From assembly GCA_963771005.1 (NCBI GenBank), contig CAVYRO010000008.1, forward strand, positions 197,029 to 261,028: 64,000 nt of DNA. The letters are read 5' to 3'. Position 1 is the stretch's first letter. Each line of letters opens with the position of its first letter. The notes below the pieces were generated by a model that saw only the letters and a list, made by a program, of their open reading frames with translations, had not been told where the DNA came from and did not search any database. The stretch comes from an uncultured Bacteroidales bacterium (GTDB taxonomy: Bacteria; Bacteroidota; Bacteroidia; Bacteroidales; GCA-2748055). Below, piece after piece: positions 2,808-34,558 of this stretch. Both the position numbers and the translations under genes were made by a program.

Positions 2808-2940
2808 GGCCTCTAACGTTTGACAATATGGCCAGTAAGGGATAGCGGGTGATTTCTTATCACGATACACGAAAAGTTGAAGCGTGCTACAAACCTTCGC
2901 AAACCACCGAAACCCTTATTGGCTATATTGTGTGTTGGCA
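2808..2940 (-). repeat. attC-like recombination site 2b
   Basis: GGCCTCTAAC (2808-2817), GTTTG, ACAATATGGCCAGTAAGGG ... CCCTTATTGGCTATATTGT, GT, GTTGGCA (2934-2940). It overlaps the last codons of the radical SAM ORF. Confidence 0.8.
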
Positions 2941-6900: not shown

Positions 6901-7032
6901 GCAACACAACGTACGAGGCTAAAAACCGGCGGTCAACAGTGCACCACCCTTTAACCCACTAATTTTATTTTTTTTGCACTATCCCCCGAAACTTCCTGTC
7001 GCACGCTGGTATTTTAGCCTTTGTTAGAGGCC
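6901..7032 (-). repeat. attC-like recombination site 6a (belongs to ORF-less cassette copy 2)
   Basis: GCAACACAAC (6901-6910), then sequence near-identical to site 2a, ending GTTAGAGGCC (7023-7032). Confidence 0.8.
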
Positions 7033-7275
7033 GGTTGTATGCGCGCTGGCTGATTGCTGATTTACTTTCCGTTCCCTGTCAGCCCGCTACAACCCTTTGC
7101 ACATTCCCGCCTTTACTCACTGCGAGCGATGGATAATTGAAAACAGAGCGATCGGCCACCTGGCTTTCAAAACATTCTGCCCTAACCATCAACCACTAAC
7201 CTCATTTACCCTTCCGTATGTCCGCAAACCGTGCGTTGGGTAGGCTGTGCCTCACGATAAGGATTTTACTCAACT
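7033..7275 (-). other. ORF-less cassette body, copy 2
   Basis: Aligns with 2565-2807 along its whole length with scattered substitutions. No ORF of 60 aa or more. Confidence 0.6.
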
Positions 7276-7410
7276 GGCCTCTAACGCTCGCAGCTAGGCC
7301 CAGTGCGGGCTTTCGAAGCGATTTCTGTCAAACGAGTAAAAAGTTAATTTGAAAAAATGACATTTGCAAACCACTGAGCTGCCCGCATTGGGTTTAGCTG
7401 TTGTTAGCAA
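7276..7410 (-). repeat. attC-like recombination site 6b
   Basis: GGCCTCTAAC (7276-7285), GCTCG, CAGCTAGGCCCAGTGCGGGC ... GCCCGCATTGGGTTTAGCTG, TT, GTTAGCAA (7403-7410). Confidence 0.8.
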
Positions 7411-8119: not shown

Positions 8120-8253
8120 TTGCTAACGGTCGCGTGTATGAGTAGTGGCGGACTTCGAAGCACTTTCCAATCAAGATACACAGAATTTGATGCGAGGCAG
8201 AACACTCGAATACGCTACACCCCCCGCCATTACTTATACACGATGTTGGCGGT
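8120..8253 (-). repeat. attC-like recombination site 7
   Basis: TTGCTAAC (8120-8127), GGTCGC, GTGTATGAGTAGTGGCGG ... CCGCCATTACTTATACAC, GAT, GTTGGCGGT (8245-8253). It overlaps the last 8 codons of the methyltransferase ORF. Confidence 0.8.
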
Positions 8254-9132
8254 AGTTTTGTTTTTTATTAATTTGTATCTTATTGGATTCCAGTCGTTAT
8301 TGGCAGGTTTGTCTAATTTGAAATTGAAAAATAATATCTCGTTACCTTTTCTAATTTTATAAGCAGTATGATTAAATGAATACTCTTTGTTCTCGTATTC
8401 TTTATATAACTTTTTTATTTCAGGAACATTATCGTATGATACAATCCAATTAATCTCTTTTATACTTTTAATCTTTTCGCTTACAATTCTGTGATTTTCA
8501 TCACTATAATGATTCATATATAAAGTACTAGCCTTATGATAGTAAGGAGGGTCAAAATATAAAATGACATTTGAATTGTCAGTTTCCATTTCAATTTTGT
8601 CTATTAATTTTAATGCGTCTTTTTTATATAGTTTTATATCTTTCTTTCGAGAAGCAATTTTTCTAATTCTTTGCTTAATTTCTTCTTTGTTAAATCTACA
8701 GTCGATATTATAATCGCTTTTTTGCTCATATCCACCAATCGGCCCACCATTAATGATACCTGAATGATTTGTTCTATTTAAAAACAATGTAGAGAATCCT
8801 AACTCCAATAAACCAACTTTTTCTTTATAGCTTTGAACCTCTTTTAGCTTAAACCAATTTTCAATAGTAACTTCTGTTTTATCAATAAGTTCGCATAATT
8901 CTTCGCTCTTATTTAAAACAGAATACCAGAAAGCATAAATAGAACGGTCTTTATCATTTATAATCACTTTTTTTACAAAACCTTCAAATAGCAAGAACAA
9001 TGCAACAGATGCACCACCTGCATATGGTTCAACATATAAACCATTAATATTCCTGTCTATGCAAATTTTTGCAATAAATGCAGAGAGTTTGTTTTTCCCC
9101 CCTGGGTATCTAAGTGGCGAATAAAAAATCAT
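8230..9132 (-). CDS. Dam-family (D12 class) N6-adenine DNA methyltransferase
   Basis: 300-aa ORF with N-terminal PLRYPGGK, EPYAGGASV (SAM binding) and catalytic DPPY (ILYFDPPYYH). Confidence 0.85.
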   Translation of the reverse strand: MIFYSPLRYPGGKNKLSAFIAKICIDRNINGLYVEPYAGGASVALFLLFEGFVKKVIINDKDRSIYAFWYSVLNKSEELCELIDKTEVTIENWFKLKEVQSYKEKVGLLELGFSTLFLNRTNHSGIINGGPIGGYEQKSDYNIDCRFNKEEIKQRIRKIASRKKDIKLYKKDALKLIDKIEMETDNSNVILYFDPPYYHKASTLYMNHYSDENHRIVSEKIKSIKEINWIVSYDNVPEIKKLYKEYENKEYSFNHTAYKIRKGNEILFFNFKLDKPANNDWNPIRYKLIKNKTTANIVYK

Positions 9133-10514
9133 TTTCTTTTAAAATAATATTCAAGTATCTCTCCAATAATGAAAGAGTTTTTTAAAATTCCATCTTTAGC
9201 CACAGTAATGTTCCCATGTGCATACTTTGCAAGCATACCTTCAAGATTATTACCACCATCTAACCAATCAGTTGTCAAAGATAAATAGTTAACTGAGTCT
9301 TTTTCCAAACTCATTTCTTTTTTGGCAATCTTCAGAAAATCATTGTATAGTTGGTCTTTTTTTGATTTGTCGGAGTCACTTTCGTCAAAATACACCCTTG
9401 CGGCTACTTCGGTTATTAATCTCAAGGACATCCCAATTATTGGCAAAACTGTAGAATCAAATTCGTTTTTTTCATAAATGTTCAATATTGCACGATAAAG
9501 GTCATTGACTTTCCCTGCTTTTAGAGCCAAGGATTTGCCAAATAATGTATTGTTTTCTTTAGAAGTTGGAGTTTTTCTAGGAGGTAAAGTAATTGGAGTC
9601 TGTTCGGCTTTCTTTGTTCCCAATTTAACTGTTTCATTGCCAAATATGTCAGTCTTTTTATTTTTCTCTATATCGCTATTTACTTTAGCTACATTTTCAG
9701 ATTTTACACTTTCTAAATAACTTTTTATCTCAGGATTTTTGTTTAGTTCCCTTGTATCAACCGTATTGCCTTCAAAATCCTTCTTTTTTAAAACATTATG
9801 AATGATGACTTTCAGTTTATCAGGAAAGGTTTTATCTGTATAAGTTAACTCTCCATTTTCATCTGTGCTTAATCCAAATGTTTCCTTTGCAGGGCCAGTT
9901 GCTATAAACCTATAAAAAGTTGTAACATATCCTTGTCCAAGTACTTCATTAATTATTTCATTTGGTAAATCTAGTTTTCTAACAAATTCAGTAATCGCAA
10001 TCTTAATTTTAGTGTTCTGACTTTCAATACCTCTACGTTTTGAATAATTTATTTTTTCAGGTTCAAGCCATCCCACTTGATTGTTTCCTTTTGCGTGTTT
10101 CCTGTCAATATAGCGATAACACTGGTCTTTGTCTTCTGATACAAGACAATCAAGCAAAAAATTAGTGTCAATATTTATCGTTGATTTTTTATTTATTAGT
10201 GAAGTGTAGAACTTTTTATCAATATCAATAACCAACTCAGGATTTGATAATAATTTATATCCAGCAAGCCTTCTATTGCCTTCTAATACAATTAATTTAT
10301 CTGTTGAATCCCATACAACAACTTTTTCCAAATGTGGTAAGTCAATATCATTGACAATTTCGTCAACAAACTCTTTAAGCTTAAAGTTAGGTTTTGATAA
10401 AAAGTATTTAATAAGTTCTTTTTCGTCAGAATTATAATACTGGTCTGGAAATCGAGCATTCTCATCCCAAAGGAAAAGTTTTTCAATCGGTACTTTTTTC
10501 TCTGTAAAATTCAT
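9129..10514 (-). CDS. ParB/sulfiredoxin-fold N-terminal domain protein with a large uncharacterised C-terminal region
   Basis: 461-aa ORF. The N-terminal segment LIVLEGNRRLAGYKLL resembles the ParB-like nuclease-domain GxxR box. There is a 4-nt start/stop overlap with the methyltransferase gene. Confidence 0.55.
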   Translation of the reverse strand: MNFTEKKVPIEKLFLWDENARFPDQYYNSDEKELIKYFLSKPNFKLKEFVDEIVNDIDLPHLEKVVVWDSTDKLIVLEGNRRLAGYKLLSNPELVIDIDKKFYTSLINKKSTINIDTNFLLDCLVSEDKDQCYRYIDRKHAKGNNQVGWLEPEKINYSKRRGIESQNTKIKIAITEFVRKLDLPNEIINEVLGQGYVTTFYRFIATGPAKETFGLSTDENGELTYTDKTFPDKLKVIIHNVLKKKDFEGNTVDTRELNKNPEIKSYLESVKSENVAKVNSDIEKNKKTDIFGNETVKLGTKKAEQTPITLPPRKTPTSKENNTLFGKSLALKAGKVNDLYRAILNIYEKNEFDSTVLPIIGMSLRLITEVAARVYFDESDSDKSKKDQLYNDFLKIAKKEMSLEKDSVNYLSLTTDWLDGGNNLEGMLAKYAHGNITVAKDGILKNSFIIGEILEYYFKRK

Positions 10515-10583
10515 AATATTTCTATTTATAGAGTTCTTTTTGTCTAGTTAATATATTTAAAAAGAAACTTGTATTGACACCAG

Positions 10584-11351
10584 TTATTCTTTATTTTTAA
10601 CATAAATATGCTTAATATGTGTATTTTCTACTTCTTTCTCTTCTATATCAAAGTGAACATTCAAAGATTTAATTAGTGGAGTAAGTTTCGGGAAACCATA
10701 ATTACGAGAATCAAAATCAGGTTTCTTTTTCATAAGTAGCCCTCCAACTTCAGCAAGAAATGCCCATCCATTATCATCAGCCAAATCACCAATTGTCCCT
10801 TTTAATAACTTAATTAATTCATCATCAATTGTATCAATATCTATAGTTGTTGTTGTAACAGGAATACGAGATTGATTAGTTACAATACTTTCTGTTGTTT
10901 TTATTTCCGATATTCCAATAATTTCAATATAAATAAATTTGTCACATGCAACTATAAAAGGATTTGGAGTCTTTTTTTCACCAATCCCAACAACTAACAT
11001 TCCAGACTCCCTTAATCTAATTGCCAATCTTGTAAAATCACTATCGCTTGAAACAAGACAAAATCCGTCAACTTTCTGGCTATGCAATATATCCATTGCA
11101 TCAATAATCATAGCTGAATCTGTTGCGTTTTTTCCTGTTGTATAACTGTATTGTTGAATTGGTGTTATTGCGTGTTCTAATAAAGCTGGCTTCCATCCTG
11201 ATACAGTTGGTTTTGTCCAGTCTCCATAGATTCTCTTAATAGTTGGAATTCCAAGTTTTGCAATTTCATCTAGCATCCCCTTAATGTTTGAATAAGGAAT
11301 ATTATCTGCATCAATTAATACTGCTAATTTTAAATCATCTTTTTGTCTCAT
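10584..11351 (-). CDS. NYN-domain (PIN-like RNase) protein with C-terminal OST-HTH/LOTUS domain
   Basis: 255-aa ORF. LAVLIDADNIP...GKNATDSAMIIDAMDIL...FCLVSSDSDFTRLAIRLRESG is typical of the NYN fold. The C-terminal GWAFLAEVGGLLMKKKPDFDSRNYGFPKLTPLIKSL is LOTUS-like. Confidence 0.75.
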   Translation of the reverse strand: MRQKDDLKLAVLIDADNIPYSNIKGMLDEIAKLGIPTIKRIYGDWTKPTVSGWKPALLEHAITPIQQYSYTTGKNATDSAMIIDAMDILHSQKVDGFCLVSSDSDFTRLAIRLRESGMLVVGIGEKKTPNPFIVACDKFIYIEIIGISEIKTTESIVTNQSRIPVTTTTIDIDTIDDELIKLLKGTIGDLADDNGWAFLAEVGGLLMKKKPDFDSRNYGFPKLTPLIKSLNVHFDIEEKEVENTHIKHIYVKNKE

Positions 11352-11370
11352 GGTTGTACTTTTTTAAATT

Positions 11371-11506
11371 ACCGCCAACGGTTGGTGTATGAGGCGTTGG
11401 GCATTTCAACGCACTTCACTGTCAAACCGCTGATATGTTTATAAAATGTACTCATGTTTCAATTAACCACATGCTGCCCAATGACTTATACACATTGTTG
11501 TGCGGT
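11371..11506 (-). repeat. attC-like recombination site 8
   Basis: ACCGCCAAC (11371-11379), GGTTG, GTGTATGAGGCGTTGGGCA ... TGCCCAATGACTTATACAC, ATT, GTTGTGCGGT (11497-11506). Confidence 0.8.
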
Positions 11507-11631
11507 CGTACTTTTTCTTCAGTCAGGGTGGGCAAAGGCATACTCTTTGACAAGTTTTGGTCGTGGGGTTGACTTTTTGCGCGACTTGGCAATGTGTATG
11601 GCTTTAGCGAGGGCATTTCTATTTCTCCGAT

Positions 11632-13479
11632 TTATGGATTTAAAATGTCATATAAAATATCACCGGCTTTCGTGAGATTTCTCAACAAGTCATCTATTGT
11701 TATTTCTGCAACTCCTCTGTCGTTATAGGTCACATTTAGTCCAATAATTGCTTTATCAATTGTAAAAGGACTTTCCTTTATTTTAGTTAATCTATCACCA
11801 CCAGGATATGCTTCAGGGGGTACTCCTGTCGGTTTGGCAAACTGAACTCCTTCTCGTGTCCAGTCTTTAAAATGTATTGTAACCGGACTTTTTGTATTTG
11901 TGCCGTTATTAGTTACAGAGTAAATATTCTTTGCAATTTCGATTTTTGCTTGGTAATTAATCGCAGGTAAATTCAAATCAAACATGCTTCCTTTTGCAAC
12001 AAGTAATGTCCTCTCAGGTAGCGTAATATTTTTTAAGGCATCAATAACTTTAAAAGCAGCTAGAAGGTCATTTTTGTATATCGGACTTTCCAGGTCGTTG
12101 TGCGACATCGGATTAAAAAGAATGCTTTTGTATAAATACAAACTTTCAATTAAAATCATAGGCGGTTCAATTCCTAAATCGTCATAATATCGTTTAAGGT
12201 TGTCTATCAGCGTTTCAAGATTTGGTGGTTTTACTAAGCCTTTTAACCCTTCACCGACAGAATAGGTTGCCAACAATTTTTCGTGAAATAAATTTTCACA
12301 TTCTTTTCGCAAAGCATTAGCGCAAGCAGGGAAATCATAAACATTAAAGTAGGCTTTTGCTTTTTCAAAATTGGTCTTGTCTTGATGAATAATTTCGGGT
12401 CCTTCAGTTCCTTTGTAAAACTCAACAAATTTCCAGTCCCCAAGATTTAACTTCGCAACTTCATACCAGTGGCGGTCATAGGTTGTAATAAAAACCTGAA
12501 AATCTTTAAATACTTTATCTGCTTCGGCAACTTCTTTTTCTTGAAGCAATTGTAATAATTTCAACCTGTTTTCATTATCCAGACCGATTAAAATATCATC
12601 TAAGAATAAAGGTTTTATCTTCCTTGAAAAAGGACTTTGTTTAACAATCGCACCTAAGAAAATACTTATGGCAATAGCTGAAAGCTTTGCTTCATTTAAA
12701 ACAAACTGAGGATTATGGGCATCTAAATAAATTCCAGCACTTTCAACCAAAAGCAAAATCTTACTTTCAGTGATATTACCCCATTGATTTGTTGTTATTG
12801 TTCTACGTTGGAACTCAATTTTCAAGTCAGGGATTAGTTTTTCTAAAATTTTATTTACTGTTGGGGCTAAATAGTCAGGATTCCCGGTTAAAAATAATTT
12901 GTTAATCGCATTGTTAAATGCAATCGCTTTTTGTTCTACCGAAGCTTTCTTTTGCCGGGCAAAATAAAATTCATGACCACTGCCGAAAGGCTTATTACTT
13001 TCTTCTGCTACATCTGTCCAAAGTTTACCTAATTCAATGCCACCTGTTATAGTTTGAGATTTGAAATGTTTTAGTACACCATTTATTACAAGGTCGAAAA
13101 CATTGATTTGTTTACCAATTTTAATGTTGTGAACTGACAGCAAGTGTTTGTAGGTTATAAAACTCTTTAATCGGTTTGCATCTGTAATTGCTGGTGTTGC
13201 AGTAGTTTTTGTTGTATCGTTTAAGGTAAATTTTGCACCACCTTCAAATTCTACTTCTATTGAACAATCAGTTCCACCGTCATTAAGAAATAAGTTACGA
13301 AGAGCTGACATATCTATGTTTTCAACACTGGATTGAAAGAAGTCTTTTAGTGCATAATAAAACGAGCTTTTACCGCTTCCGTTTTCTCCATACATGAAAA
13401 CATTTTTACCACCAATTGGAATTTTCTCTTCCTTGGTAAATGCTTTATATTTATCAATGGTTACATTTTGGATTCTCAT
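11632..13479 (-). CDS. ABC/SMC-type (RecF-like) ATPase
   Basis: 615-aa intact ORF with Walker A GENGSGKSS near the N-terminus and Walker B/D-loop LFLDDILIGLD. Its ATG overlaps the methyltransferase stop (ATGA at 13476-13479). Confidence 0.7.
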   Translation of the reverse strand: MRIQNVTIDKYKAFTKEEKIPIGGKNVFMYGENGSGKSSFYYALKDFFQSSVENIDMSALRNLFLNDGGTDCSIEVEFEGGAKFTLNDTTKTTATPAITDANRLKSFITYKHLLSVHNIKIGKQINVFDLVINGVLKHFKSQTITGGIELGKLWTDVAEESNKPFGSGHEFYFARQKKASVEQKAIAFNNAINKLFLTGNPDYLAPTVNKILEKLIPDLKIEFQRRTITTNQWGNITESKILLLVESAGIYLDAHNPQFVLNEAKLSAIAISIFLGAIVKQSPFSRKIKPLFLDDILIGLDNENRLKLLQLLQEKEVAEADKVFKDFQVFITTYDRHWYEVAKLNLGDWKFVEFYKGTEGPEIIHQDKTNFEKAKAYFNVYDFPACANALRKECENLFHEKLLATYSVGEGLKGLVKPPNLETLIDNLKRYYDDLGIEPPMILIESLYLYKSILFNPMSHNDLESPIYKNDLLAAFKVIDALKNITLPERTLLVAKGSMFDLNLPAINYQAKIEIAKNIYSVTNNGTNTKSPVTIHFKDWTREGVQFAKPTGVPPEAYPGGDRLTKIKESPFTIDKAIIGLNVTYNDRGVAEITIDDLLRNLTKAGDILYDILNP

Positions 13480-16400
13480 TTTAAAGCTTCTTTTATTATT
13501 CTCACTTCTTCAATGCTGTCCAGAGTCTCAATGGCATATTTTACCGGGTGGTTGTCGTCATACAAACGTTCAAACTCACTTTGTACAATTGCCAATTTTT
13601 CTTCCGGACTCATGGTCTCATTTATTGGTTTTAGATTACCTAAGTGTTTGATTATTTCTTTATCAGCTGATTTGAGTTCTTTGGGGAAGTAAAGTTCATA
13701 AACTATTTCATTTATCAATTCAAAGAAAAACTGTTCATACAATTCATTTAATGAAAAGGAAAAAATGCAATACTGCCTAATGACTATTATTAAATTAGCA
13801 ATATCAGAATCATATGAAGGCAACGGAAAATTCCGAATATCAGTCACAAGAATTTTAGGAAAATCACCTTTTGTTGCTTTAGGTGAAGCATTAAAATGAT
13901 AGAAGGTTGCAATAGTTGAATTTAGAATTCCCCATAACCATTCAAGTGAATAACTGGTATTTTCCTTATTTATAATCGAAATAATTTGTGGGTCATTAAC
14001 CAGATGTTCTTCAACAATGCAGGCAATTATTGTTGGATTAGTAATTTCTCTAACTAAAACTCTCTTCCTATTAAAGTACCTTGGCTCGATATAGCCAGCA
14101 AGGTGTTTGCCATACCATATGTATGAATCAGCTTTCGAGTAACTGTATTTATTCAGGTTCCTACCTTGAATTTCTTGTTCATATTCTGATGATATTTTTT
14201 CAGTACTATGCCATTCTCTATTGTCAACAATAGAATTTCCATTTTCTTTTCCATAGGTTTTTATTAAATCACTCCTTCTGTATGGAATATAACCTTGCGA
14301 TATGTCAAACAAATTTTCAAGATTATTTCTTTTTTCTGTTATCCTCTTTATAGTTTCGACAGTAGTTGGGCTTAATTTAAATGCTAATCCCCAATTTTTA
14401 TTGAAAGATGTGATTTCTTCTTTTGAAATTTCTAATCTTGGTCTTGAAATTAATTCTATGAAACTATTTGCCTCATTGGTATTTCGATATCCAATACTAA
14501 TTGTTTCTTTAGTTAAACCTTTAGACCAATTGAAAATTGTATTTCTTACAACTGCACTCTCAAAAAACTTAAAGTTTGTACAATCCAAAATTTCATTTAC
14601 TGTCCACCTATCTAAAATCTTATTTCTATAATTTTCAGCAAATACATTAAACAATATGGAATTAGGAATTATAAAGGTATTGCATCCATTATTGTGTAAA
14701 AGCTTGAAAGAAAGTTCTATGAAAAAATAGTATATCTCATAATCAGGGACTTTTTCAAATTGCTTCAAAACTATCTTTCTGTAATCATCTTTTATTGATA
14801 CACCATATGGTGGATTTCCAATCACCACATCAAAACCGCCCTTTTCGTGCCAAACCTCTGAGAAATAGAGTTTGAAATCAAAGTCGATTTTATATCCTGC
14901 AAATTCTTCAATCTCATCTAATAGTTGTCTGATTTTCTTGTTTATCTGTAGGCGAAGTTCTTTCTTTTTAGTTTCATTTGTTTCATCATAAAAAAGTGGT
15001 TTTAATCTTTCTATTTCTTTTAGAAGTTCATCATTTGGTAAAACATCTGTTGGCTTACCAATTAATGAGTTGCCGCAAACAATTTTATAATCCAGATTTG
15101 GCAGGGTTTCAATGGGGTCAAGGTCATCTTCGTCGACCACAAGCGAAAGCCACAAACGCAAACGGGCAATATCAATTGCTGAAGCATCAATATCTACTCC
15201 GTAAATGCTTTCTTGAATAATATGGCGTTTTAATCGATAGATATAACGACTTTCGTTGATACTCTCGTGAAACTGAAAACCAAAGCCATCTAATTTTTTA
15301 TTCAAATAAGCATTGCTTAAATGCGGCATTAATACTAATTGTGCATTTACTAATTCATGTAACAAACCCACCGGAAAAGCCCCCGAGCCAATAGCAGGGT
15401 CGCAAATTCGTATTTCTGTTAATTTCCGGTCAATCAACTCTGCATTATTTCTAATGCTTTCAGGAATTTGGTATTTATAATCTTTGGTTTCTGTTCCTTT
15501 GTTTGCAACACGCTGGTCGTTTTCCAACGCAAAGTTTCCTTCTCGAATATAAACTTCTATGTCGTCTTTCTTAACTTTTTCTTCCAGTGCATTGTCCAAA
15601 TAATGTATCAGGCTTTCCTGGCACATATAATGCACAATTTCACGCGGAGTATAAAACGCGCCATTACCTTTTCGATCGTTTATCATCGAAAAGATTTTCA
15701 AAAACTTTTCCCAACATTTCCGGGTCAACAGCTACTTCTTTGTCCAGCGGCTCGTCTTCTTTTATGGTAAAGTTGTAGCGGTCAAAAACATCCAAAACTC
15801 CGGTTCCCTTATCTCCGGCTTTGTTTTTTTCTTCATTACTGAAATAGATTTTCGGGAATGGTAATGTTGGCAGTTTCCCAATCGTATTCTGCTTCAAACA
15901 ATCCTCCATTTAAAAATGGAATCCGGCAATCAAATCGTTTGTAATAAGAGTTTTCATTGTTCCGTTCTTTTGCCAATGCTTCGTAAAACAAGGGTTGCAG
16001 AATAATCTTTAAAGTAATTTTGGTTTTTTCTTTGAGCTTCTTCAAACAATTCCTGAATAAAACGTTTTTTTCCTTTTCCCCAATGTTCGTTTTGTGGTAC
16101 ACCCAGCCAGCCTTTTTTCTGCAAAAAATAGAGAAATACAATTTGCCCGAGTAGTTTTTTTGTAAATCGGGTGTTGTCAATATTCGCCTTTTCTAATTCG
16201 GATTGAATGTGCGTGTCGTTTTCAAAATGTTCGTACAGTTTAACATACAAATCTTTGTATTGACCGAAAAATTCATCGGTGACTTTTTCAATGCTAAAAG
16301 CATTTTCAATTTCTTCAATGGTAGGATTATTGCATATGTTTTGAAGTAATGGCAGAATTTGGTTTTTGCGTGTATGTGCTTTTTCATATTCACCCACCAG

Positions 16401-16867
16401 AAAGGAATACCTTTTTGCAGGTGTAAATTCTTTTCGGGTTTTTACCTTTTGTTTTTCTTCATCTAAGATACGACTGATGTTCGAGTTTAATGAACGAAAA
16501 ACGCCAGTCGGCTCCATCATCTTCTTTTGAATAAAAAGCAACAAGAGCATAATCTTTTTCAAATTTGCTCAGGTGTTTAATCACAAAATTTCGTAATGCG
16601 GTTCTGGCTCGTTCCAGTTTCGCACCGCTTTTCACTTCAACAATTAAAACGTCCAGCGCTTCGCCTTCCGGGTCAATGTACTTGCCAATTCGTTTGTAGG
16701 TGTTGATGTGTTCTTTGTGGTCGTCCCAAATATATTGTCCGCTGTAGACATTGCTTTTGGGTTCAATATCATTCAGCAAGTTTTTGACAAACAGTGTAAA
16801 CCGGCTTTCATCAAACCTTTACTTGAATGTTTCTTCGATTAAGTGATATGGCAGTATTTTTATCCAT
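13476..16867 (-). CDS. Large Eco57I/type IIG-like N6-adenine DNA methyltransferase; N-terminal third fragmented by frameshifts
   Basis: The intact 750-aa C-terminal ORF carries CDPAIGSGAFP (SAM motif I) and VVIGNPPYG (motif IV). The fragments 15664-15909, 15836-16180, 15954-16562 and 16459-16779 read as one continuous N-terminal region (e.g. QIVFLYFLQKKGWLG). The proposed ATG at 16867-16865 (MDKNTAISL...) comes from manual translation. Confidence 0.7.
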
Positions 16868-19800
16868 AATTATTTAATAAGGTATCCTGATAAAATGACT
16901 TCACGTTTTTGAAAAGCTTTTTTCGTGCTGTACTGTTTTCAATGGCAATTGCTCGAATGTGTTTTCTTAAAATATTGAGTGCTTCCAATGGGTCGATGGT
17001 TTTTTCCAATTCATTTTTAATGTCCCGGGCAGTGCGTTTTGCCATTGTACCCAGCTACTAAAATATTTTTCACACTTTCTAATAAATTCATCGTCCGAAT
17101 CGGTAAAGCTTTTGACAGTTTTTAAAGATTTATCTTTTAAGCGTTTTTCGATGTATTTTACATTTGAACGCCCGCCGGCGAGTTTTTTGCGGTTCATCGC
17201 CAATGGTGGTGTCCAACTCAAAGCGAGCCCTGTTTGTCTGTAAAAGATGGTAATAATCGTCAGGGATTTTTGCCCTTTTGGTTAAAGGTTTACATTCCAG
17301 ATTATAAACTGCATCAAAAAAAGTAATTTCATCTGAGCTGCCCTTTTTGTTGAGATAGAATTTTTTGAGTTTACCAATCCTGAAAAAAGTAAGTAGTTGA
17401 TTGGCTTCAATTTTTGACTTTTATAAATCCTGAACGGGCTTTTTTAGGTAGGTTTTTTATTTTTTGAAATAAATCAGGATTTTCATCTCTTATTTTTCGC
17501 ATCATTTCCAGATACTTCAATTCCGAATCGCCTTCTTCATCTTCTCCGGTGTAGGCCTTTTTGTTATTCAAGGTGTTAAACAATTCCTGACTTCCAATTT
17601 CTTCGCCATCGGTCAGGTATTTGGCATCTTCACCCAAAATATCATGAAACATCTGGATTTTATTGGTGATGTTCATTTCCAATCCAAGATGTGCATCCGA
17701 TTGTGTTGTTGGGAAGAAATTAAAAATATGCACATTTGTCAAATGCTGACTTCCCAAACGATTCACACGTCCGGCTCTTTGTAGCACTCTGGTTGGATTC
17801 CAGGGCAAATCGTAATTGATAACCACATTTGACCGATGAAGGTTAATTCCTTCAGCCAAAACATCGGTGGCAATCAGAATTCTCAAATCATTAACTTGTT
17901 CTTTTGGTTTTTCTATTTGGGTCGTAATTGGCTTGAATAATATCGCGTGAAACAGTGTGATTTGATGTTAGTTTCAAATCTGAGTGACGTCCGCCTTTAC
18001 TGGAATAAAACATTACCTATTTAGGAAATTCGTTTAGCAAAGCTTCATAAATGTAATCACCTGTTTCTTTTGATTCTGTGAAAATTACAAGCTTATTGTT
18101 CTATTCAAGTGATTTGGTTTTCTTTGATTCAAAAATGAACTGTTCAAGTTTCGGGTCTGAGTCAACAGTTCTGCCATAATTCTTTTACTTGTTTAAAACT
18201 TTTAAATCAAATTCAAGTTTTGTTTTAAAGTCTTTTTTAAAGTCTTTTGAATCATATTTGTTGGCTTTGTCTTCTTCAACCAATTCATCGAGTTTATCAA
18301 TGTCATCATTTCTCAAGCAGGTCGTAAACATCTACTTTTTTGCTGATATAAACTGTTCCAGAATCGAACATTGAGATAAAGTTTTCATAAGAAAGAATAA
18401 AACGGTCAACACTTTGCCGAAAAGCGTAAAAACTACTTTCCAAACGTTTAACAAGAATTCCTTTCATAAATCCTCCAACATTTCGCTGTTGTTGTTTTTC
18501 AAACTCACTTAGCTGCTTTATTTCCAATGTAAAAAAGCAACGGCGTGTATCTGGAATAGGTAAAGTGTGTAGGAGTTTTATCGTTTGCTTTAAAAGTGTT
18601 TTCAAATTCACCTTCGTATTCATATACAATTTTCTGCGGGTCTTTCACATTCAGGAAAAACCAAACCTTGTTTAAGAATATCGCCTTTAAAATAAGTAAC
18701 AACATCTGACCGTGTTCTTCGAACCATGACATATCTTAAAATGTTGTTTTTAATTTCGTTTGAAACTTCTTTAATGAGAATTTTATAAGCAGGGTCATCT
18801 TTTTCAACTTTCTTTAGCTTGGTTCTTAATGAATTAAAAAACTTTTCAAGATTTGGCACTCCGGGAATAGTTGACTGTTTTGGAGCCTGAAATAATTTAA
18901 GTTGTGCAAAAATATCATCAACCGTATTGTTTAAAGGAGTTGCAGTAACAAGAATTACTTTTTTGCCCCGGCAAATATCCAATAAGGTTGGCATATGATT
19001 GTGTGTTTTCATTTCTGAAACGGTGTGCTTCATCCACAACAATATAATCGTATCGTTCTAATCCTTTTTTAATGATGTGTTCCAGTTTACCAAGCGATTC
19101 AACTTCAAAACTTCGGATACCAAAATCAAATAAAGAATCTTTCCAGTAATCCTTTCAACACAGGAGGACAAACAACTAAAGTTCTGCCCTGAATTTGTTG
19201 AAGAAGTAAAGCTGTAATAAATGTTTTACCAAGACCAACAACATCAGCAAGAAAAACGCCATTGTATGCTTCCAGAATTTTCTTTGCCTGAATTGCAGCC
19301 TGACTTTGATATTTTAATTTCATAAATCCATCTGGCAGAAATGGGTCAAACTGGTCTTCCAGATTTATGTCTTCTTCCAAGTATTCATAAATTAATTTCA
19401 GATAAAATTCGTATGGAGTAATTTGATCATTTAACCATGTTTTTGTTGTAATTGTGTCAACAAAATCATCTGAAATATCAACAGATTCATTCCAAAGCTC
19501 ATTAAACTGGTTTTCTGCAAATTTAACATCTAATGTTTTCCTCAACTCAACATTAAATTCTCGGTTTGCCACAAAGCCAGATTCAGAAAAATTACTTGAA
19601 CCAGTAATTACAAAACCATAATCTCTGTCTTCAGGATGGAATCTGCCTATGTAAACTTTTGCATGAATATTTTTTGATGGATAGGCTCTTATTTCTAATT
19701 TTTTTCCATTTCCTCCAATTGCTTTATCATCTGCTGGATTTTTACATTCTTGTTGTAAAAATTCAATAAATTTCCGAATTCCAATTTCTAAGCTTGTTAT

Positions 19801-20143
19801 CATTTTCATCACTTGTTTCAATTTCAGTTTTCAGGTTTGCCTGAAATTGTTTTTTTGTTCTTTGATGCGATTCAAAATCAATCATTCCGATTTGCTCGTG
19901 ATATTGCAAAATATCATAAGAATCTCTGTCAACGCTTAAACCAACAAGTATTCTGACTTTTTCAACAGGTTCAAGTGATTCATACAATTGATAAAAACCA
20001 CTTGCCCTGAAATAACCAACAAGTACATCAAAAAGTTGAGTGTCTTTTAGTGTTGCTTTAAATCGATTTAATAAACTACTTCCATTTTCATTTGTGAAAA
20101 ATGTCAAGTCAGTTTGGTCAATATTATTTGTCTTCTTATCCAT
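16860..20143 (-). CDS. Phospholipase-D-like nuclease domain fused to SNF2-family helicase; heavily fragmented (8 or more frame breaks)
   Basis: 19763-20143 and 19126-19821 give the PLD region ([18 protein letters not shown]) and helicase motif I ([10 protein letters not shown]). 18620-19042 gives [11 protein letters not shown]. 17407-17886 gives helicase-C motifs ([31 protein letters not shown]). Short fragments continue to a stop at 16860. Confidence 0.7.
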
Positions 20144-20156
20144 TAAATTCAGTTAT

Positions 20157-20438
20157 TTACTCGATTGATTTAATTGTTTCTTGTAAACCAATCTTCAAAT
20201 ATTCCAACTCGCCCAGTTCTGTTAAAATCATTGATTTGATAAATTCAATTTGAATTTCCTTTTCCGGTTTGTCAAGTGTATCGGATAGGATTGGAATCAT
20301 TTCGGTCGTTGCACGTCTTTCATTGCGTTCAATCTTGCTTAACAATGAAGTATCAATGTCAAGTGCAGCAGCAACTTTTCTAAGGGGTAATTCTTTGTCT
20401 TCTCTTGCTTTCCGTAAGTATTCACCAAATGATTTCAT
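20157..20438 (-). CDS. XRE-family helix-turn-helix transcriptional regulator
   Basis: 93-aa ORF. FGEYLRKAREDKELPLRKVAAALDIDTSLLSKIERNERR is a canonical HTH_3-type segment. It is the first gene of the 9.1-kb cassette. Confidence 0.8.
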   Translation of the reverse strand: MKSFGEYLRKAREDKELPLRKVAAALDIDTSLLSKIERNERRATTEMIPILSDTLDKPEKEIQIEFIKSMILTELGELEYLKIGLQETIKSIE

Positions 20439-20603
20439 CTTGTCAATTTATTTTAGACGATTCTGTCCAAAAATACATCTTTTTTATTTTGTTTTTCCAT
20501 CAGCGGGTCGGAAAAGATTAAGCTCTTTTGGTTTTTTTAGGGTTGGCATTTTGTGTCGGCAAAAAACCAAATGTGCTTAATGTGCGTGGGGCTTTTTCAG
20601 TAT

Positions 20604-20741
20604 GCCGCACAACGTTTGACAATATGGCAAGTGGCGGTTTGCGGAGCGCGTCTGTATCCACCGTTGAAAAAGTTTGAAGCGGGCTACAATGCCCGAATTT
20701 ACTACTATCCCCGCCATTTGCTATATTGTGTGTTAGGGGGC
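20604..20741 (-). repeat. attC-like recombination site 9
   Basis: GCCGCACAAC (20604-20613), GTTTG, ACAATATGGCAAGTGGCGG ... CCGCCATTTGCTATATTGT, GT, GTTAGGGGGC (20732-20741). Confidence 0.8.
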
Positions 20742-20748
20742 GTTAATA

Positions 20749-21250
20749 TTATATTGTTGTCATTCTAAAATCTTTCCATCTTATGATTTCGGAATATGGA
20801 AATTCATTCTTTATGTGTTTTTTATATTTTGTCCTTGCTAACAGAAAAATTATTTGATTATCATCAATTTCAATATTTCTCTTGGCAATCTTATTTCTCA
20901 ATTTTGGAATATTAGAAATTAAATAATTCAAATTATTTTCATTTACTCCATTTTTTGAATTTCTATCTCTGATTTTTAATGGCTCATCGATTATATCAAT
21001 TAAGAAAATCCCCTTATCTCTGAAGTTCTATTAAAAACTTTTCATATTCAACCACATCTCTTGGTACGGTGTCAAAATAGTGATAAAAAATCGTTGCTGG
21101 TAAGCTGGTGTTTTCTTCCCTAATTCTGTTTTGAATAGTATCAGGTAAATAAAAATACTTTTTACCAGAAAAAGGAGGTGCTTCTCCAATTAGTAAAGTC
21201 TTAATTTTTAATGGTCTATATTTCTCGGAAATTTTAAAATAGTTTATCAT
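20749..21250 (-). CDS. Hypothetical protein, probably one gene split by a frameshift (track ORFs 21014-21250 and 20749-20931)
   Basis: The two short ORFs are adjacent and co-directional. The open frame of the second extends upstream almost to the stop of the first. No confident motif. Confidence 0.35.
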
Positions 21251-21681
21251 TTCACTATATCATATTGTTCGTAAAGTCCAATATTATCATACAAAGACAA
21301 TTTACCATTATTTTCAATTAAATAATAATCATTGTATCCATCCCCCATTAAGGCTTTGATAATAAATGTTTGTCTCCCAGATTTTGTCTTGGTATCTAAT
21401 TCCCACTTTTTACCAATCTTTAACTTCTCAATCTCCATCTCATTTATGTAGTAAACACCATTTTTTTTAAAAATTACAACCAAAACACCATCACCCTGAC
21501 TCCATTTGCCGAGAATATCAACAGATTTATTCTCTGCTAAAAATTTAATCATTAGTTTATCAGTTTTTGAATTATCAGTACTTGTATTTTTTTTTGTATC
21601 ATCATAATATGGAGCTGTCATTATAATTTCTAAATCAGGGTCAAAATGAGATGTAGCCCAAGCTCCTGAACCAACTTTCAT
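21247..21681 (-). CDS. Hypothetical protein
   Basis: 144-aa ORF with a 4-nt stop/start overlap with the next gene. Confidence 0.45.
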   Translation of the reverse strand: MKVGSGAWATSHFDPDLEIIMTAPYYDDTKKNTSTDNSKTDKLMIKFLAENKSVDILGKWSQGDGVLVVIFKKNGVYYINEMEIEKLKIGKKWELDTKTKSGRQTFIIKALMGDGYNDYYLIENNGKLSLYDNIGLYEQYDIVK

Positions 21682-21720
21682 TCCTGGTAGATAGTAGCAT
21701 ATAAATATCCTTTCATAATC

Positions 21721-22002
21721 CTAATTTAGTTCATTTTTTAGTTTTTTTGCCAATTTTTCAATTGAAGTTTTTTTAAACTCTTTATTTAATCGAACATCTA
21801 TACTTGCTTTAATTGAGGGAATAGATTCTTGTTTTATAATGGAATACTCATCAAAGATTTCATCATAATCAGTTTTATTAATATAATTATCAGATTGTTT
21901 ATCATCTCGATTTAGAACAAACTTCATCATTCCGAAAATGAAAATAACAACAACAATCCCTATTATAATTTCGAATTTTTTATCATTACTTTTTTTGTCC
22001 AT
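21721..22002 (-). CDS. Small membrane-anchored protein
   Basis: 93-aa ORF with a single N-terminal hydrophobic helix (FEIIIGIVVVIFIFGMMKFV). Confidence 0.45.
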   Translation of the reverse strand: MDKKSNDKKFEIIIGIVVVIFIFGMMKFVLNRDDKQSDNYINKTDYDEIFDEYSIIKQESIPSIKASIDVRLNKEFKKTSIEKLAKKLKNELN

Positions 22003-23601: not shown

Positions 23602-25067
23602 TTAAACTGTTCCTTCGTAATTTTCACGAATCCTCTTGGTGCTGATTCTGTAATCTTTAATAATCCCTAATTTAATTAATTGTTCAAGATTAATTCTTTT
23701 CGGAAATGAATAATTATAGAAAAAATTAACAATAAACGGTCTATTACGGGGATTAAAATTCCACCATTTTTTAAGCTCATCATTTGTAAAAATACTTCTC
23801 TTCCTACATTTTAAAATAAAATCGTTTTCGTCTTTTATGTCTGTGATTATGTTTTCAACAGTACCAATCGTCGAAATTACACTTTTATATTTACCACCTG
23901 TACGATAAAATATAATCAAATCTCCGGTTTTTAAGCCCTTTTCCCACGAGCGTGAAATGTATGCCTTCCTGATTGCATTTCTATGAAGCTCATTTTCGAC
24001 AAAATCCATTGGAGATTCTGTTGTTAAAATGGAGTCTGGTAATAATTCTGTATGATAATCGGGCCAAATTGGGCATAGGAAAATATTAGTATTACAAGAG
24101 ATATAAGGATATGTTAATTTTGGGTCAATTATATTGAATGCAGGTGAAAAATCCCTTGTGAGGACAATTTCTTCGCCACAACTTGATTTTTTCAGTTCCA
24201 TGTTCGGCAAACCCCCAAGTTTTAAGCATTTCAATTAATCTCTTCTGCTCTTCACGTTTATCAAATATAGTTACATAAATTTCATTGACTTTATTTACAA
24301 CTGCATTATCAAATATTATTTTTAAAAACCTTTCGCCTAATCGAACCCCATTACTCTCAACTTTAAATGTTCCAATTTTAAGTCTCTTTTTGGGTGTAAA
24401 GACAGGTGTAATATCCGAATAATTTTCATCTGTATTTTCAACTTTCACATATAGAAAAGAAAGAACATTTTCTTGGTTTTCTGTAATATATGCGGTTTCT
24501 TCAGATTTTTTATTAAACCAATTATCGAAACCAGGGTAATCCTCTCTGAAACTATCAAAAAAAGTATCTTTTAAGTTTACATTGCCAAATAATTTTTTTG
24601 ATACGCTCAGTACTTTATAATCAACTAAATGAGGATTTTCAGAAACAACTTTTTCTAAAAATGAATTGATGTTAAATACTTTCTCTGAAATGCCAAGCCT
24701 TTCGGCTTTTTTATGTATTTTTTTATCTTCTGTTACAAGTATGTCAGTTCGTCCACAAAATACTTCATTAAGAAGTTGTGTGTCATTTTTATCATTTTCA
24801 TTGTTATCCATCTCCTCCGATACATTTTTAACAGAATCGTCAAGTGGAGCAGTGGTTTGTAATTCGTTATAGCTTTTGAGTTTAATCTTTAAAGTCTCCA
24901 CGGCAGGTTTGTTGGAATTTTTATTTATTTCTTGATATAGTAATCGGATGTATACATTTTGTGTACTTAGCCTTATCCAACCATTTAAAAAGTATACCAA
25001 TATCTCGATTAACAACAGTACTTGTCTCACGGTGAATTATAATATTTGTATCAAGAAGTGCTTTCAT
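23602..25067 (-). CDS. Multidomain protein: N-terminal PIN-like segment, GNAT-like acetyltransferase segment, C-terminal PUA/ASCH-like segment; at least 2 frameshifts
   Basis: Manual translation from ATG 25067-25065 gives MKALLDTNIIIHRE... and later ILVTEDKKIHKKAERLG (PIN-like). The middle region has LKIGTFKV...GVRLGERFLKIIFDNAV...EIYVTIF (GNAT-like). The C-terminal ORF 23602-24234 has KTGDLIIFYRTGG...ISTIGTVENI (PUA-like). All domain calls come from motif resemblance only. Confidence 0.45.
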
Positions 25068-25966: not shown

Positions 25967-26030
25967 GACACACAACGTTTTTATATACGCAATATTACGA
26001 TATATAGATGTATATCGTAATATTGCGTAT
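25967..26030 (-). other. attI-like primary recombination site
   Basis: ACACACAAC (25967-25975), GTTTT, then a perfect 21-bp inverted repeat TATACGCAATATTACGATATA (25983-26003) / TATATCGTAATATTGCGTATA (26010-26030) around TAGATG. It has only one AAC/GTT box, no second box on the recombinase side, and is the last site before the recombinase gene. Confidence 0.6.
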
Positions 26031-26265: not shown

Positions 26266-27855
26266 TCACCCGATATCCAACTCATCAAAAGGATTTTTTT
26301 CATCCGTGTTTTTACGGCTGGTTACATGGGTGTATATTTCGGTGGTCTTGATGCTGCTGTGTCCCAACTTTTCCTGCAATGCCCTTATGTCCTTCGTCAG
26401 TTCGTAATCGTGCGTCGCAAAAGTATGCCTTACTTTATGAGGAGTTATGTCCTTATCGACGCCGGCCCGCACGGCTGCACGCTTCACAACTTTCTCAACA
26501 CTCCCTCGTGAATATTTCCCGCCGTTCATTCCTTCAAAAAGATATACCGAAGGCTTGTACCGTTCCATATATTTCTCGTAAAAAGGATCAAATTTCGCCG
26601 GAATGGGCACATAACGCTCCTTCCTTCCCTTGCCCATTATCAACAATTGCCGCCTTTCCCAGTCAAAATGGTCAAGTTTGCAGTCCAGGACTTCGGCTAA
26701 TCTCATCCCGGTAGCATATAATATTATGATCAGGGTCTTATGCTTGATGTTTCGGGTAACCTCAATCATCTTCTTTATCTCATCGGTATTCAGGAACTTC
26801 GGTAAAGTTTTTCCCAATTTGGGCCGGTCAATGAAATAAAATTTTCTTTCCCCGCCTTTGACTTTCTCATAATAAAACTTAATGGCATTGATGGCCAGAT
26901 TCAGGGTTGATTCAGAAACATTCCTCTCCACATTTAGATACATCAGAAATGACCTTATCTCATCTTCCGTGATCTTATCAATCTCTACTGTGTCGAAAAA
27001 ATTAATAAACTCCGTAAACATGGAAGTATAATTCCTGCAGGTATTCTTACTGTACCTTAACTCTTTCAGCTTGAAGATATACGTATCCGGACAGGGCCGG
27101 AAATTTTCAATCTCATCCCTTCTCTTTCTTTTTTTAACGGGTCCCCCCTTTACATCCTCTATGCAGGAAAAGGATTTTCCTAAAGCCGTGATAATGTTCT
27201 GCAATTGCCTGAGAAACAGTTCAGAAAAAGGGATTGAAAAGCATTTGTTCATTTTGTCATACTTCCAGTATGGGAATTCTTTGATTTTCTTGATTAAATC
27301 TTTGTTGTACTTACCGATAATCTTTAATCTGCCCGATGCAGTCCTGACGATCCGGATATCGGTATCAAATGCCGGGGACGAAATTTCATCTTCCTTCATT
27401 AATTCCGCATCCTTTAACCTGGTTCCAAAGTAGGATCGGATTTTATCAAGATTAGTTCCGAAATTTGTCACCTGCCAAAGCCTGTTCGTCCAATCCCAGT
27501 TGCTGTATCTAATTAATTCCTTGATGAACCGGAGGTCAGCTTCATTTTTCTCCATTTTAACCAGGATCTTTTTTTCAAAAACCTGCATAAGAACTGGCTC
27601 TGAACCTTCCGGATCCCCCTCCTTTTCCTTAGGTTTATCTGTAGAGGAGGCACTTTTTTCCTGATATTCAAGATTTGGAAACATCCTCTTTATCTCACTG
27701 AAGGCTTCACGCGTATACGGAATATGCCACGATCTATACGTCTTGCTCCAGGTACAACCTTTGATCGTCTTTATTTTTTCTTTTGTGGAAGTATCATAGG
27801 GGAATTTCAGAAGTATACGATACTCTCCGTGATGCAGGATTTTTTCCAGTTCCAT
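26266..27855 (-). CDS. Tyrosine site-specific recombinase (XerC/D-like catalytic domain) with a 240-aa N-terminal extension of three related modules
   Basis: 529-aa intact ORF. Catalytic motifs are ATGMRLAEV (Arg), GKGRKER (Lys), HKVRHTFAT (HxxR) and LGHSSIKTTEIYTHV (His, Tyr). The SAM-like core-binding segment is YSKNTCRNYTSMFTEFINFF...STLNLAINAIKFYY. Only 58 aa lie between GKGRKER and HKVRH by my count. Confidence 0.9.
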   Translation of the reverse strand: MELEKILHHGEYRILLKFPYDTSTKEKIKTIKGCTWSKTYRSWHIPYTREAFSEIKRMFPNLEYQEKSASSTDKPKEKEGDPEGSEPVLMQVFEKKILVKMEKNEADLRFIKELIRYSNWDWTNRLWQVTNFGTNLDKIRSYFGTRLKDAELMKEDEISSPAFDTDIRIVRTASGRLKIIGKYNKDLIKKIKEFPYWKYDKMNKCFSIPFSELFLRQLQNIITALGKSFSCIEDVKGGPVKKRKRRDEIENFRPCPDTYIFKLKELRYSKNTCRNYTSMFTEFINFFDTVEIDKITEDEIRSFLMYLNVERNVSESTLNLAINAIKFYYEKVKGGERKFYFIDRPKLGKTLPKFLNTDEIKKMIEVTRNIKHKTLIIILYATGMRLAEVLDCKLDHFDWERRQLLIMGKGRKERYVPIPAKFDPFYEKYMERYKPSVYLFEGMNGGKYSRGSVEKVVKRAAVRAGVDKDITPHKVRHTFATHDYELTKDIRALQEKLGHSSIKTTEIYTHVTSRKNTDEKNPFDELDIG

Positions 27856-34525: not shown

Positions 34526-34558
34526 AAATAGATTGTTTGACCATAAAAATATAAGAAA

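Follow-up and report, generated by a model that had tools for sequence, protein, structure and literature searches.

Can a single integron cassette carry a complete defence operon of more than 9 kb? The question is raised by a 64,000-nucleotide stretch of contig CAVYRO010000008.1 (assembly GCA_963771005.1, positions 197,029 to 261,028), referred to here as the window, whose host is an uncultured Bacteroidota-like bacterium. At 11379-20612 on the minus strand of the window, two canonical attC sites bound a cassette of 9,234 bp, measured from crossover point to crossover point (G|TT to G|TT). A preliminary description of the same DNA had listed four genes here, namely an XRE-type helix-turn-helix (HTH) regulator, a fusion of a phospholipase D (PLD) nuclease and an SNF2 helicase, an Eco57I-like methyltransferase and an ATP-binding cassette (ABC)/SMC-type ATPase, all co-directional, and this list is accurate; the genes lie on the minus strand. 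We consider it highly probable that the locus is one very large cassette in a chromosomal integron array and that it forms a self-contained, self-regulated, ATP-dependent defence operon of the restriction-modification kind.

The limits of the cassette are set by its attC sites. These sites were first revealed by motif-anchored folding, and a strict search by regular expression and complementarity found nothing because it disallowed bulged bases. Each attC is about 130 nt long and combines two boxes, ..YAAC and CGTTRRR, with an imperfect stem in which some bases are bulged. Fifteen of them align, with compensatory changes at 13 of the 16 predicted stem pairs. A covariance model, R1, made from the window's own attC sites and searched over the whole 64 kb with filters off, recovered exactly 15 sites at 64-118 bits; everything else scored 13 bits or less. 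The attC of the preceding cassette (20607-20739, minus strand; 109.3 bits, E = 6.8e-25) provides the left recombination junction in its R′ box (..AAACG|TTGTGC), which places G|TT at 20613|20612. The cassette's own attC (11373-11504, minus strand; 89.7 bits, E = 3.9e-20) has the R′ box ..ACCG|TTGGCG, with the G at 11379. Homologues of this site occupy the same place in five related loci from other records, numbered here L001, L005, L006, L008 and L090. Both flanking sites share strand and register with the other 13.

Between 11505 and 20606, no internal attC was found by R1 with filters off. The top match there (8.7 bits, E = 2) covered only the unstructured middle of the model and had no R boxes. 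A 164-nt candidate from the folding screen (15685-15522) was discarded, as it lies inside the methyltransferase gene and lacks the architecture of an attC. The preliminary description had seen no site between its attC-like sites 8 and 9 and had held that a degenerate one there would split the region into ordinary cassettes; the covariance-model search bears out its view. Its span of 11507-20603 is the space between the two sites, and the cassette itself runs from crossover to crossover, 20612 to 11379. Its statement that the cassette is far above the usual size also holds at 9,234 bp.

The cassette begins with a 5′ leader upstream of the HTH gene (20439-20612; this and all other features of the cassette are on the minus strand), which is kept in L001 and L090. 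It contains TATTTTTG about 35 nt ahead of the HTH ATG. The -7 promoter consensus of Bacteroides is TAnnTTTG, and TATTTTTG fits it, which makes it a candidate promoter of the cassette. With such a promoter the cassette would be independent of the integron promoter. In a sigma-70 scan, sites were no commoner than in shuffled sequence, and that consensus is unlikely to be the host's. The HTH protein that follows (20157-20438, 93 aa, intact; PF01381, 1.1e-08) is 98% identical to its L001 counterpart. Its PADLOC matches, HTH_VI, capH and Control_protein, are weak. The protein is probably a C-protein-like controller of the operon.

The fusion of a PLD (HKD) nuclease and an SNF2 helicase comes next (16860-20143). 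It starts at 20143 and ends at about 16860, is 1085 aa long in intact relatives, and residues 1-1085 of the L001 helicase are covered by the window in a tblastn comparison. The Pfam domains, detected on fragments, are PLDc_2 at the N-terminus, ahead of SNF2-rel_dom and Helicase_C. Against PADLOC, an intact orthologue matched best an unnamed candidate, "C3a139 HKD+Snf2", at 185 bits, above DrmD, PLD_Helicase and HmaA. The NCBIfam model phospholipD_antiphage gave 153 bits, against a cut-off of 1100.

The third gene (13476-16866) encodes a PglX/Type IIG-like N6-adenine methyltransferase of the gamma class (Pfam Eco57I 5e-32 and TaqI_C 5e-15, with N6_Mtase and MmeI_Mtase). In relatives it is 1108-1160 aa long, and in the intact relative L001 it is spaced by 2 nt from the helicase gene. 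In the window, an intact open reading frame (ORF) of 750 aa (15728-13476) includes NPPY and TaqI_C, and the N-terminal part of about 380 aa is frame-broken. The PADLOC model REase_MTase_IIG (PDLC03596) matched the L001 orthologue over its full length at 640 bits, and the window's fragments map over much of the same model. An AlphaFold2 (AF2) model of a full-length relative, P0282 (pLDDT 77.7), aligned with BrxX/PglX of BREX over about 1,090 columns; Foldseek searches with it also matched CamA, MmeI, BpuSI and DrdV. The N-terminal domain has a PD-(D/E)xK-like order of strands and helices with D67...E79-x-K81. Of 50 relatives, 48 have D67, 44 have K81 and 40 have E79 (Q in the other 10); the window copy has E and K. 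Because E and K are replaced in some relatives, the nuclease activity of this predicted domain is uncertain.

Within the methyltransferase, alignments of variants define a hypervariable segment at 13720-14790. Variants share only 13-30% identity over residues about 314-670 of the intact fragment, amid flanks that are 90-100% identical. Alignments of DNA between variants stop at 14772-14805 and restart at about 13706. Such low identity within such conserved flanks marks the segment as a swapped target-recognition domain.

The last gene encodes an intact ABC ATPase of 615 aa (11632-13479; Pfam SMC_N, AAA_15 and AAA_21). As the preliminary description had it, its start overlaps the methyltransferase stop; the overlap is 4 nt (ATGA). 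The protein consists of a Rad50/SMC-like head (about 1-360) followed by a helical bundle (370-483) and, at the C-terminus, a domain rich in beta structure. In its AF2 model (pLDDT 85.9), the place of the coiled coil holds short helices only (174-196, 205-215 and 263-284), and the top Foldseek matches were Rad50 and SMC/cohesin heads with E of about 1e-11. PADLOC gave only weak matches to the N-terminal P-loop region (LmuB, AriA and mad3; also PtuA and GajA). The family counts 635 representatives (E <= 1e-30) in a set of 1.84 billion, and the relatives of the ATPase number more than 1,600. No solved structures close in sequence to the cassette proteins were found.

The cassette has counterparts elsewhere. 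The four-gene operon is intact in L001, L003-L007 and L090, with an HTH protein of 93 aa, a helicase of 1084-1085 aa, a methyltransferase of 1108-1147 aa and an ATPase of 615-617 aa. The preliminary description had asked whether the same four genes recur inside or outside cassettes; they are linked in these loci. R1 was not trained on the relatives' loci. An attC lies directly upstream of the HTH gene and directly downstream of the ATPase gene in L001, L005 and L006, and on a single side in L003 and L008. Sites on both sides were likewise seen in L075 and in L074, the isolate Rudanella paleaurantiibacter HX-22-17 (both GTDB species representatives), and sites on one side in at least 12 further loci, including Anaerophaga thermohalophila DSM 12881. 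L053 has an attC-bounded unit of more than 10 kb with a gene embedded between methyltransferase and ATPase.

The junctions are shared as well. The first bases past the G|TT crossover (TTGTGCGGCATACTG) are identical in the window, L001 and L090, and the similarity to L001, L005 and L090 ends within the flanking attC sites. Outside the cassette, the flanks of the window have no similarity to 14 other cassette-bearing loci tested. Shared junctions with unrelated neighbours are the signature expected of a cassette placed in different arrays. Three short-read contigs of 9,039, 9,111 and 9,294 bp contain the four genes and little else, and L090 is bounded by attC sequence at both ends; such contigs fit assembly breaks at repeats and are no proof of circles. 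With these attC boundaries and unrelated neighbours, the intact cassette is found in at least six other contigs, one of them from an isolate genome. On these comparisons, the giant cassette is a recurrent family rather than a one-off, and we infer that it would be mobile.

Other genes next to the cassette in these loci were also noted. In L001, right after the cassette's attC, lies a class 2 DISARM-like cluster (12216-21848) with genes for Vsr, a C5 methylase, DrmE_C, NERD/PhoH, a DEAD helicase and an MZB (DUF1998) protein. The 9.7 kb of L001 past the cassette have no attC, so the cluster either lies beyond the array or itself forms a second very large cassette. In L005 (11644-13767) and L006 (10423-12546), the module is followed by a cassette that codes for a 707-aa ATPase (AAA_15/AAA_21) and likely serves defence too. 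L010 (SRR3166067, an anaerobic digester metagenome) is an 807-bp contig with an HTH protein identical to that of the window, which hints at the habitat of the cassette lineage.

The gene order extends well beyond cassettes. A scan with the ATPase alignment, limited to one genome per species, gave 79 loci, 56 of which had at least 7.5 kb upstream and were testable. In 50 of these 56 the order was PLD-SNF2 helicase, methyltransferase, ATPase, on one strand. By record title, the hosts fall into at least 10 groups at phylum level. They include Bacteroidota, Chlorobiaceae, Planctomycetes, Acidobacteriota, Caldilineaceae, cyanobacteria, Gammaproteobacteria, Desulfobacterota-type lineages, Victivallales and one Peptococcales genome. 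The ATPase gene lies within about 60 bp of the methyltransferase gene in 18 loci, with a gap of 0-3 bp in ten of them. In 32 of the 50 collinear loci, 0.2-4.8 kb of other genes stand between the two. Judged by N-terminal sequence only, the embedded genes include DUF262/GmrSD-like ones (465 and 617 aa), Schlafen/AlbA_2-like ones and two paired genes (about 659 and 420 aa); loci with embedded genes include L020-L033, L052, L053, L072, L078 and L079. Such embedding is typical of restriction-modification loci.

We compared the system with known multi-gene defence systems. No named one fits the intact orthologues in PADLOC or NCBIfam, although an earlier in-silico mention of the ABC clade is possible (Krishnan et al. 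2020). The PADLOC check that the preliminary description had proposed returned, for intact orthologues, "REase_MTase_IIG" and the unnamed "C3a139 HKD+Snf2" and no named system. With current tools, the system would be reported as "RM type IIG" only. The likeness to BREX is confined to the predicted fold of the methyltransferase, which resembles BrxX/PglX; PglZ, BrxC, BrxA/B and BrxL are all absent from the cassette, and the NCBIfam PglX models gave 26-35 bits against cut-offs of 400-900. Gabija, PARIS and Lamassu were rejected, since for each of them a defining component is missing from the cassette.

The Type-2 DUF499-centred BREX-related systems (PMC12839542) come closer. They have an SNF2 helicase with an N-terminal HKD domain, an N6-methyltransferase and a DUF499 ATPase, and are predicted to be restriction-modification-like; 98% of the loci have a stand-alone DUF3780 protein (PMC12839542). 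Hma belongs to the same DUF499-centred family (PMC8565338, PMC11232893). The cassette shares with the Type-2 systems the core of helicase, methyltransferase and ATPase and the N-terminal HKD on the SNF2 helicase. Its ATPase, however, is a 615-aa Rad50/SMC-like ABC protein and not the DUF499 AAA+ protein of Type-2 and Hma systems, and there is no DUF3780 gene, nor any fifth gene in the cassette, L001-L007 or L090. The match to HmaA covered the helicase core only (92 bits), and no HmaB or HmaC was among the PADLOC matches listed.

Two other comparisons are informative. The PbeABCD/CxC-ABC systems (PMC10853773) combine an HKD endonuclease-SF2 helicase with an ABC ATPase and sometimes DNA methylases. 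The cassette likewise has an HKD-helicase and an ABC ATPase, with a weak PbeA match to its PLD region, but lacks the DndE-like ribbon-helix-helix protein and the small disordered protein. Its ATPase has, according to the model, neither a long coiled coil nor a CxC zinc hook, and its methylase is an N6-adenine enzyme of PglX/Type IIG type instead of a cytosine methylase of the PbeABCD type. With the Type IIG/IIL enzymes MmeI, BpuSI and DrdV, and with PglX/BrxX of BREX, the methyltransferase shares its overall layout: an alpha/beta domain at the N-terminus, then a helical domain, the gamma-class methyltransferase with NPPY and, at the C-terminus, the target-recognition domain. Type IIG enzymes act alone; for this methyltransferase, linkage to a nuclease-helicase and an ATPase is obligate. 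The system is best described as a further variant among ATP-dependent restriction-modification-like systems.

By analogy with these relatives, we infer the following restriction mechanism. The XRE-HTH protein would control expression from the cassette's own promoter in the manner of a C protein, independently of the distant integron promoter. The PglX/Type IIG-like methyltransferase would read a short motif through its swappable target-recognition domain and place N6-methyladenine on the host DNA. On unmethylated invading DNA, it might recruit or license the HKD-nuclease/SNF2 motor, which would translocate and cut, a step akin to that of Res or HsdR in Type III and Type I systems and of the HKD-helicase in Type-2 BREX-related systems. 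The Rad50/SMC-like ABC ATPase might bind or clamp DNA and act in restriction as sensor or regulator.

Several observations weigh against a single operon of this kind in a mobile cassette. Any role assigned to the ATPase is speculative. Loci have exchanged ATPase subfamilies, as in a pair with helicases 80% identical and ATPases 38% identical, and other genes are often inserted between methyltransferase and ATPase. The putative PD-(D/E)xK motif is degenerate in about 20% of relatives. The candidate integrase heading the array, described below, scores just under one curated cut-off for integron integrases and well under another. Excision and capture of cassettes fall with length (PMC5371416), so mobility of a 9-kb unit is unexpected.

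In one alternative, the ATPase is not a subunit but an independent defence gene, akin to those of Gabija, PARIS or Lamassu, and a habitual neighbour, since defence genes tend to cluster with restriction-modification loci or to sit inside them. The 0.2-4.8 kb of other genes in 32 of the 50 loci would fit this, as would ATPases that are down to 35-45% identical and have lost or replaced the C-terminal domain where helicases are still 63-80% identical, and the weak PADLOC matches given above. We regard it as unlikely: the ATPase keeps strand and order in 50 of 56 loci across the phylum-level groups, abuts the methyltransferase within 0-3 bp in ten loci and overlaps it in the window, always lies within the same attC-bounded cassette, and has in the cassette none of the partner nucleases typical of Gabija, PARIS and Septu. 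Still less probable, to the point of being very unlikely, is a 9-kb defence island between cassettes or between separate attC clusters, with the attC sites there by coincidence. The length, far over the approximately 2 kb given for the largest known cassettes (PMC4889954), speaks for an island, as do the default 4-kb rule of IntegronFinder, which would split the array here, and the lack of attC flanks around the module in L002/L012 (Mucilaginibacter) and many further genomes. In independent contigs, however, homology sets in with the TT of the upstream R′ box and stops within the cassette's own attC, which is itself homologous, the neighbours are unrelated between loci, and both flanking sites are in register with the other 13 on the same strand.

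We give hardly any credence to a reduced or divergent class 1 DISARM. PLD, SNF2 and Eco57I-type adenine methyltransferase domains are the accessory components of class 1 DISARM, and the cassette has all of them; PADLOC and NCBIfam list matches to DrmD, DrmC and DrmMI; and in L001 the class 2 DISARM-like cluster adjoins the cassette. Against this, DrmA and DrmB (DUF1998/MZB) are absent from the cassette, from the intact copies and from the 50 collinear loci. The NCBIfam DrmD model gave 148 bits against a cut-off of 610, and the best PADLOC model of the methyltransferase is Type IIG (640 bits), not DrmMI (83 bits). In the cassette, PLD is fused to the helicase instead of forming a stand-alone DrmC, and an ABC ATPase is added. 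The preliminary description had compared the genes with DISARM and had rejected that assignment for lack of DrmA and DrmB. The rejection was correct, but the nearest relatives are the HKD-SNF2 restriction-modification-like systems and PglX/Type IIG rather than DISARM.

One feature of the window copy could be read as loss of function. Frame breaks in the helicase and the N-terminus of the methyltransferase, beside an intact ATPase and an intact catalytic part of the methyltransferase, had been reported in the preliminary description, and we confirmed them. Calling indels against four intact relatives gave 21 that are private and shift the frame, all of them between 19789 and 15685; one or two in-frame stops were seen as well. 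The frameshifts are 18 single-base insertions, one 2-nt insertion and two single-base deletions (19 insertions to 2 deletions), and only 3 of the 18 single-base insertions are in a homopolymer context. Two in-frame events are also private to the window copy. The four relatives have 0, 0, 5 and 1 private indels. About 16 of the frameshifts and one TAG, at 18019, are in the helicase. No frameshifts were found in the ATPase, the HTH protein or the aligned part of the methyltransferase C-terminal region, a region whose target-recognition segment is unalignable as DNA.

After repair of the frame, the helicase is 93.5% identical to that of L001, with a ratio of nonsynonymous to synonymous substitution rates (dN/dS) of 0.086; the ratio is 0.074 for the repaired methyltransferase. 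Both values are indistinguishable from those of the intact ATPase (0.088) and HTH protein (0.062). Private nonsynonymous and synonymous changes number 17:57 in the broken zone, 6:36 in the intact zone, 3:33 in L001 and 4:48 in L005. The excess of random substitutions in the broken zone is thus about 10-13, against 21 indels. Over 14838-11506 the window agrees at 100% with an independent Logan contig of 3,333 bp (run ERR11594398), whose two ends fall exactly at the attC and at the conserved NPPY region, the points from which the sequence is common to other cassette variants. The contig L010 ends ahead of the first frameshift. No record of the 126-aa truncated helicase product was found in other assemblies. 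Inspection of the inserted bases as merged alleles of nearby polymorphic sites revealed no clear pattern.

Frame breaks also occur elsewhere in the window. A SusC-like gene of the host is in four ORFs and a SusD-like gene in two (31210-36385), which fits three +1 shifts and one -1 shift, and short ORFs are also found in the 41-44 kb region. One further cassette gene, PDC-M11A, is frame-broken as well. SusC/SusD genes are usually multi-copy in Bacteroidota, and in this sample the shared part of the cassette exists in several variants. This pattern suggests residual indel errors in multi-copy gene families of the assembly. The host proteins of the source contig are without close relatives.

Natural mutation in bacteria yields far more substitutions than indels, and bacterial pseudogenes are typically deletion-biased. 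An insertion-rich spectrum that ignores sequence context favours errors of sequencing or consensus, and the 21 frameshifts probably represent a local patch of assembly error rather than decay; a patch left unpolished through interference by reads of related copies is, in our judgement, probably the best explanation. Its weak point is that frameshifts are so dense here, at about 5 per kb when the remainder of the window has about 0.1 per kb, that a special local cause must be assumed. If instead the frame breaks are real, the system was recently inactivated, e.g., after selection against toxic restriction, and an orphan methyltransferase (the 750-aa ORF with NPPY and target-recognition domain) remains together with the ATPase. 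Restriction-modification systems are well known to lose the restriction part and keep the methyltransferase, and several observations would agree with such a loss: the breaks leave the catalytic and recognition part and the ATPase untouched, the nonsense substitution at 18019 is clear, the private nonsynonymous excess in the broken zone is present though modest, and the NCBI annotation lists a 736-aa methyltransferase coding sequence. This possibility is to be taken seriously but is rather doubtful. With dN/dS of 0.07-0.09, 21 frameshifts imply about two indels per substitution, unlike natural bacterial mutation; the 19:2 bias to insertions outside homopolymers is opposite to the deletion bias of pseudogenes; since a single frameshift inactivates a gene, selection would not account for 21; and the other frame breaks of the window fall in multi-copy gene families. 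Under assembly error, the organism would probably carry a functional system, and the case shows that indel errors clustered in one place of a metagenome-assembled genome can look like pseudogenisation.

The surroundings of the cassette are those of an integron array. From position 1 to about 28,000, the window has a GC content of about 28-41% and carries the cassette array on the minus strand; the remainder has about 44-55% GC and Bacteroidota-type genes (ECF sigma/FecR, SusC/SusD, glycosidase and sulfatase). The array comprises at least 14 cassettes with 15 attC sites in 834-25382 and runs off the start of the window. The giant cassette is apparently the fifth from the recombinase end. A 529-aa Xer/IntI-like tyrosine recombinase (26266-27855, minus strand) heads the array, co-directional with the cassettes, and is the candidate integron integrase. 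It has an extra N-terminal extension of about 250 aa. It scored 219.1 bits against NF040815 ("tyrosine recombinase/integron integrase"; cut-off 220) and 180 bits, in two stretches, against TIGR02249 ("integron integrase"; cut-off 265). Because these scores fall below both cut-offs, the protein is a plausible integrase by sequence rather than a certified one. Near 25979, an inverted repeat ending in AAAAACG|TTGTGTG is a possible attI.

Neighbouring cassettes also hold defence genes, including PD-Lambda-5, PDC-M11A and a pVip-like gene. The next cassette (8253-11372, about 3.1 kb) has three genes and is another multi-gene defence cassette. It encodes a protein with NYN and OST-HTH/LOTUS domains (10584-11351) and the PD-Lambda-5 pair, the A subunit at 9129-10514 and the B subunit, a Dam-like methyltransferase, at 8230-9132 (370 bits). 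The PADLOC candidate PDC-M11A (23602-25030) is in two overlapping ORFs, 24125-25030 (profile positions 33-293) and 23602-24234 (290-471). A cassette protein at 2923-3729 has a partial match to prokaryotic viperin (pVip, radical SAM; 1e-14). An ORF-less cassette of about 375 bp including its attC is present in two copies, 2435-2810 and 6904-7278, which are 93-96% identical.

Defence cassettes have been described from sedentary chromosomal integrons (bioRxiv 10.1101/2024.07.02.601686, 10.1101/2024.07.02.601719). They are small and "streamlined", and long loci such as BREX or CRISPR-Cas were reported to be entirely absent from integrons (bioRxiv 10.1101/2024.07.02.601686). The cassette described here resembles them in being an attC-bounded defence system in an array with other defence cassettes. 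It differs in its size of 9.2 kb, in its four genes, two of which have about 1,100 codons, and in its occurrence in Bacteroidota/Chlorobiota and not in Vibrio. When IntegronFinder was published in 2016, the largest known cassettes were put at about 2 kb and attC sites were clustered within 4 kb (PMC4889954); 9.2 kb is more than four times that maximum. A 4-kb cassette of Vibrio cholerae was not recovered in a capture screen (bioRxiv 10.64898/2026.03.17.712381).

We lean, by a narrow balance, towards the broader view that integrons of Bacteroidota/Chlorobiota mobilise cassettes of about 9-11 kb, each holding a full ATP-dependent restriction-modification-like system with its own regulation, an as yet unnamed type made up of an HKD-SNF2 motor, a PglX-like N6-adenine methyltransferase of swappable specificity and a short Rad50-like ABC ATPase. 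A recurrent 9.2-kb cassette with identical attC junctions, found also in a cultured isolate, challenges the size limit, and default integron annotation has a blind spot for such cassettes. Cultured carriers are Rudanella paleaurantiibacter, Mucilaginibacter aurantiaciroseus, Sphingobacterium athyrii and Geofilum rubicundum, and the variants that differ almost only in the target-recognition domain are a natural series for change of specificity. If the broader view is true, the reported lack of long defence loci would result in part from Vibrio-centred sampling and from the 4-kb rule of IntegronFinder, and integron recombination would not be limited to cassettes of about 2 kb or less.

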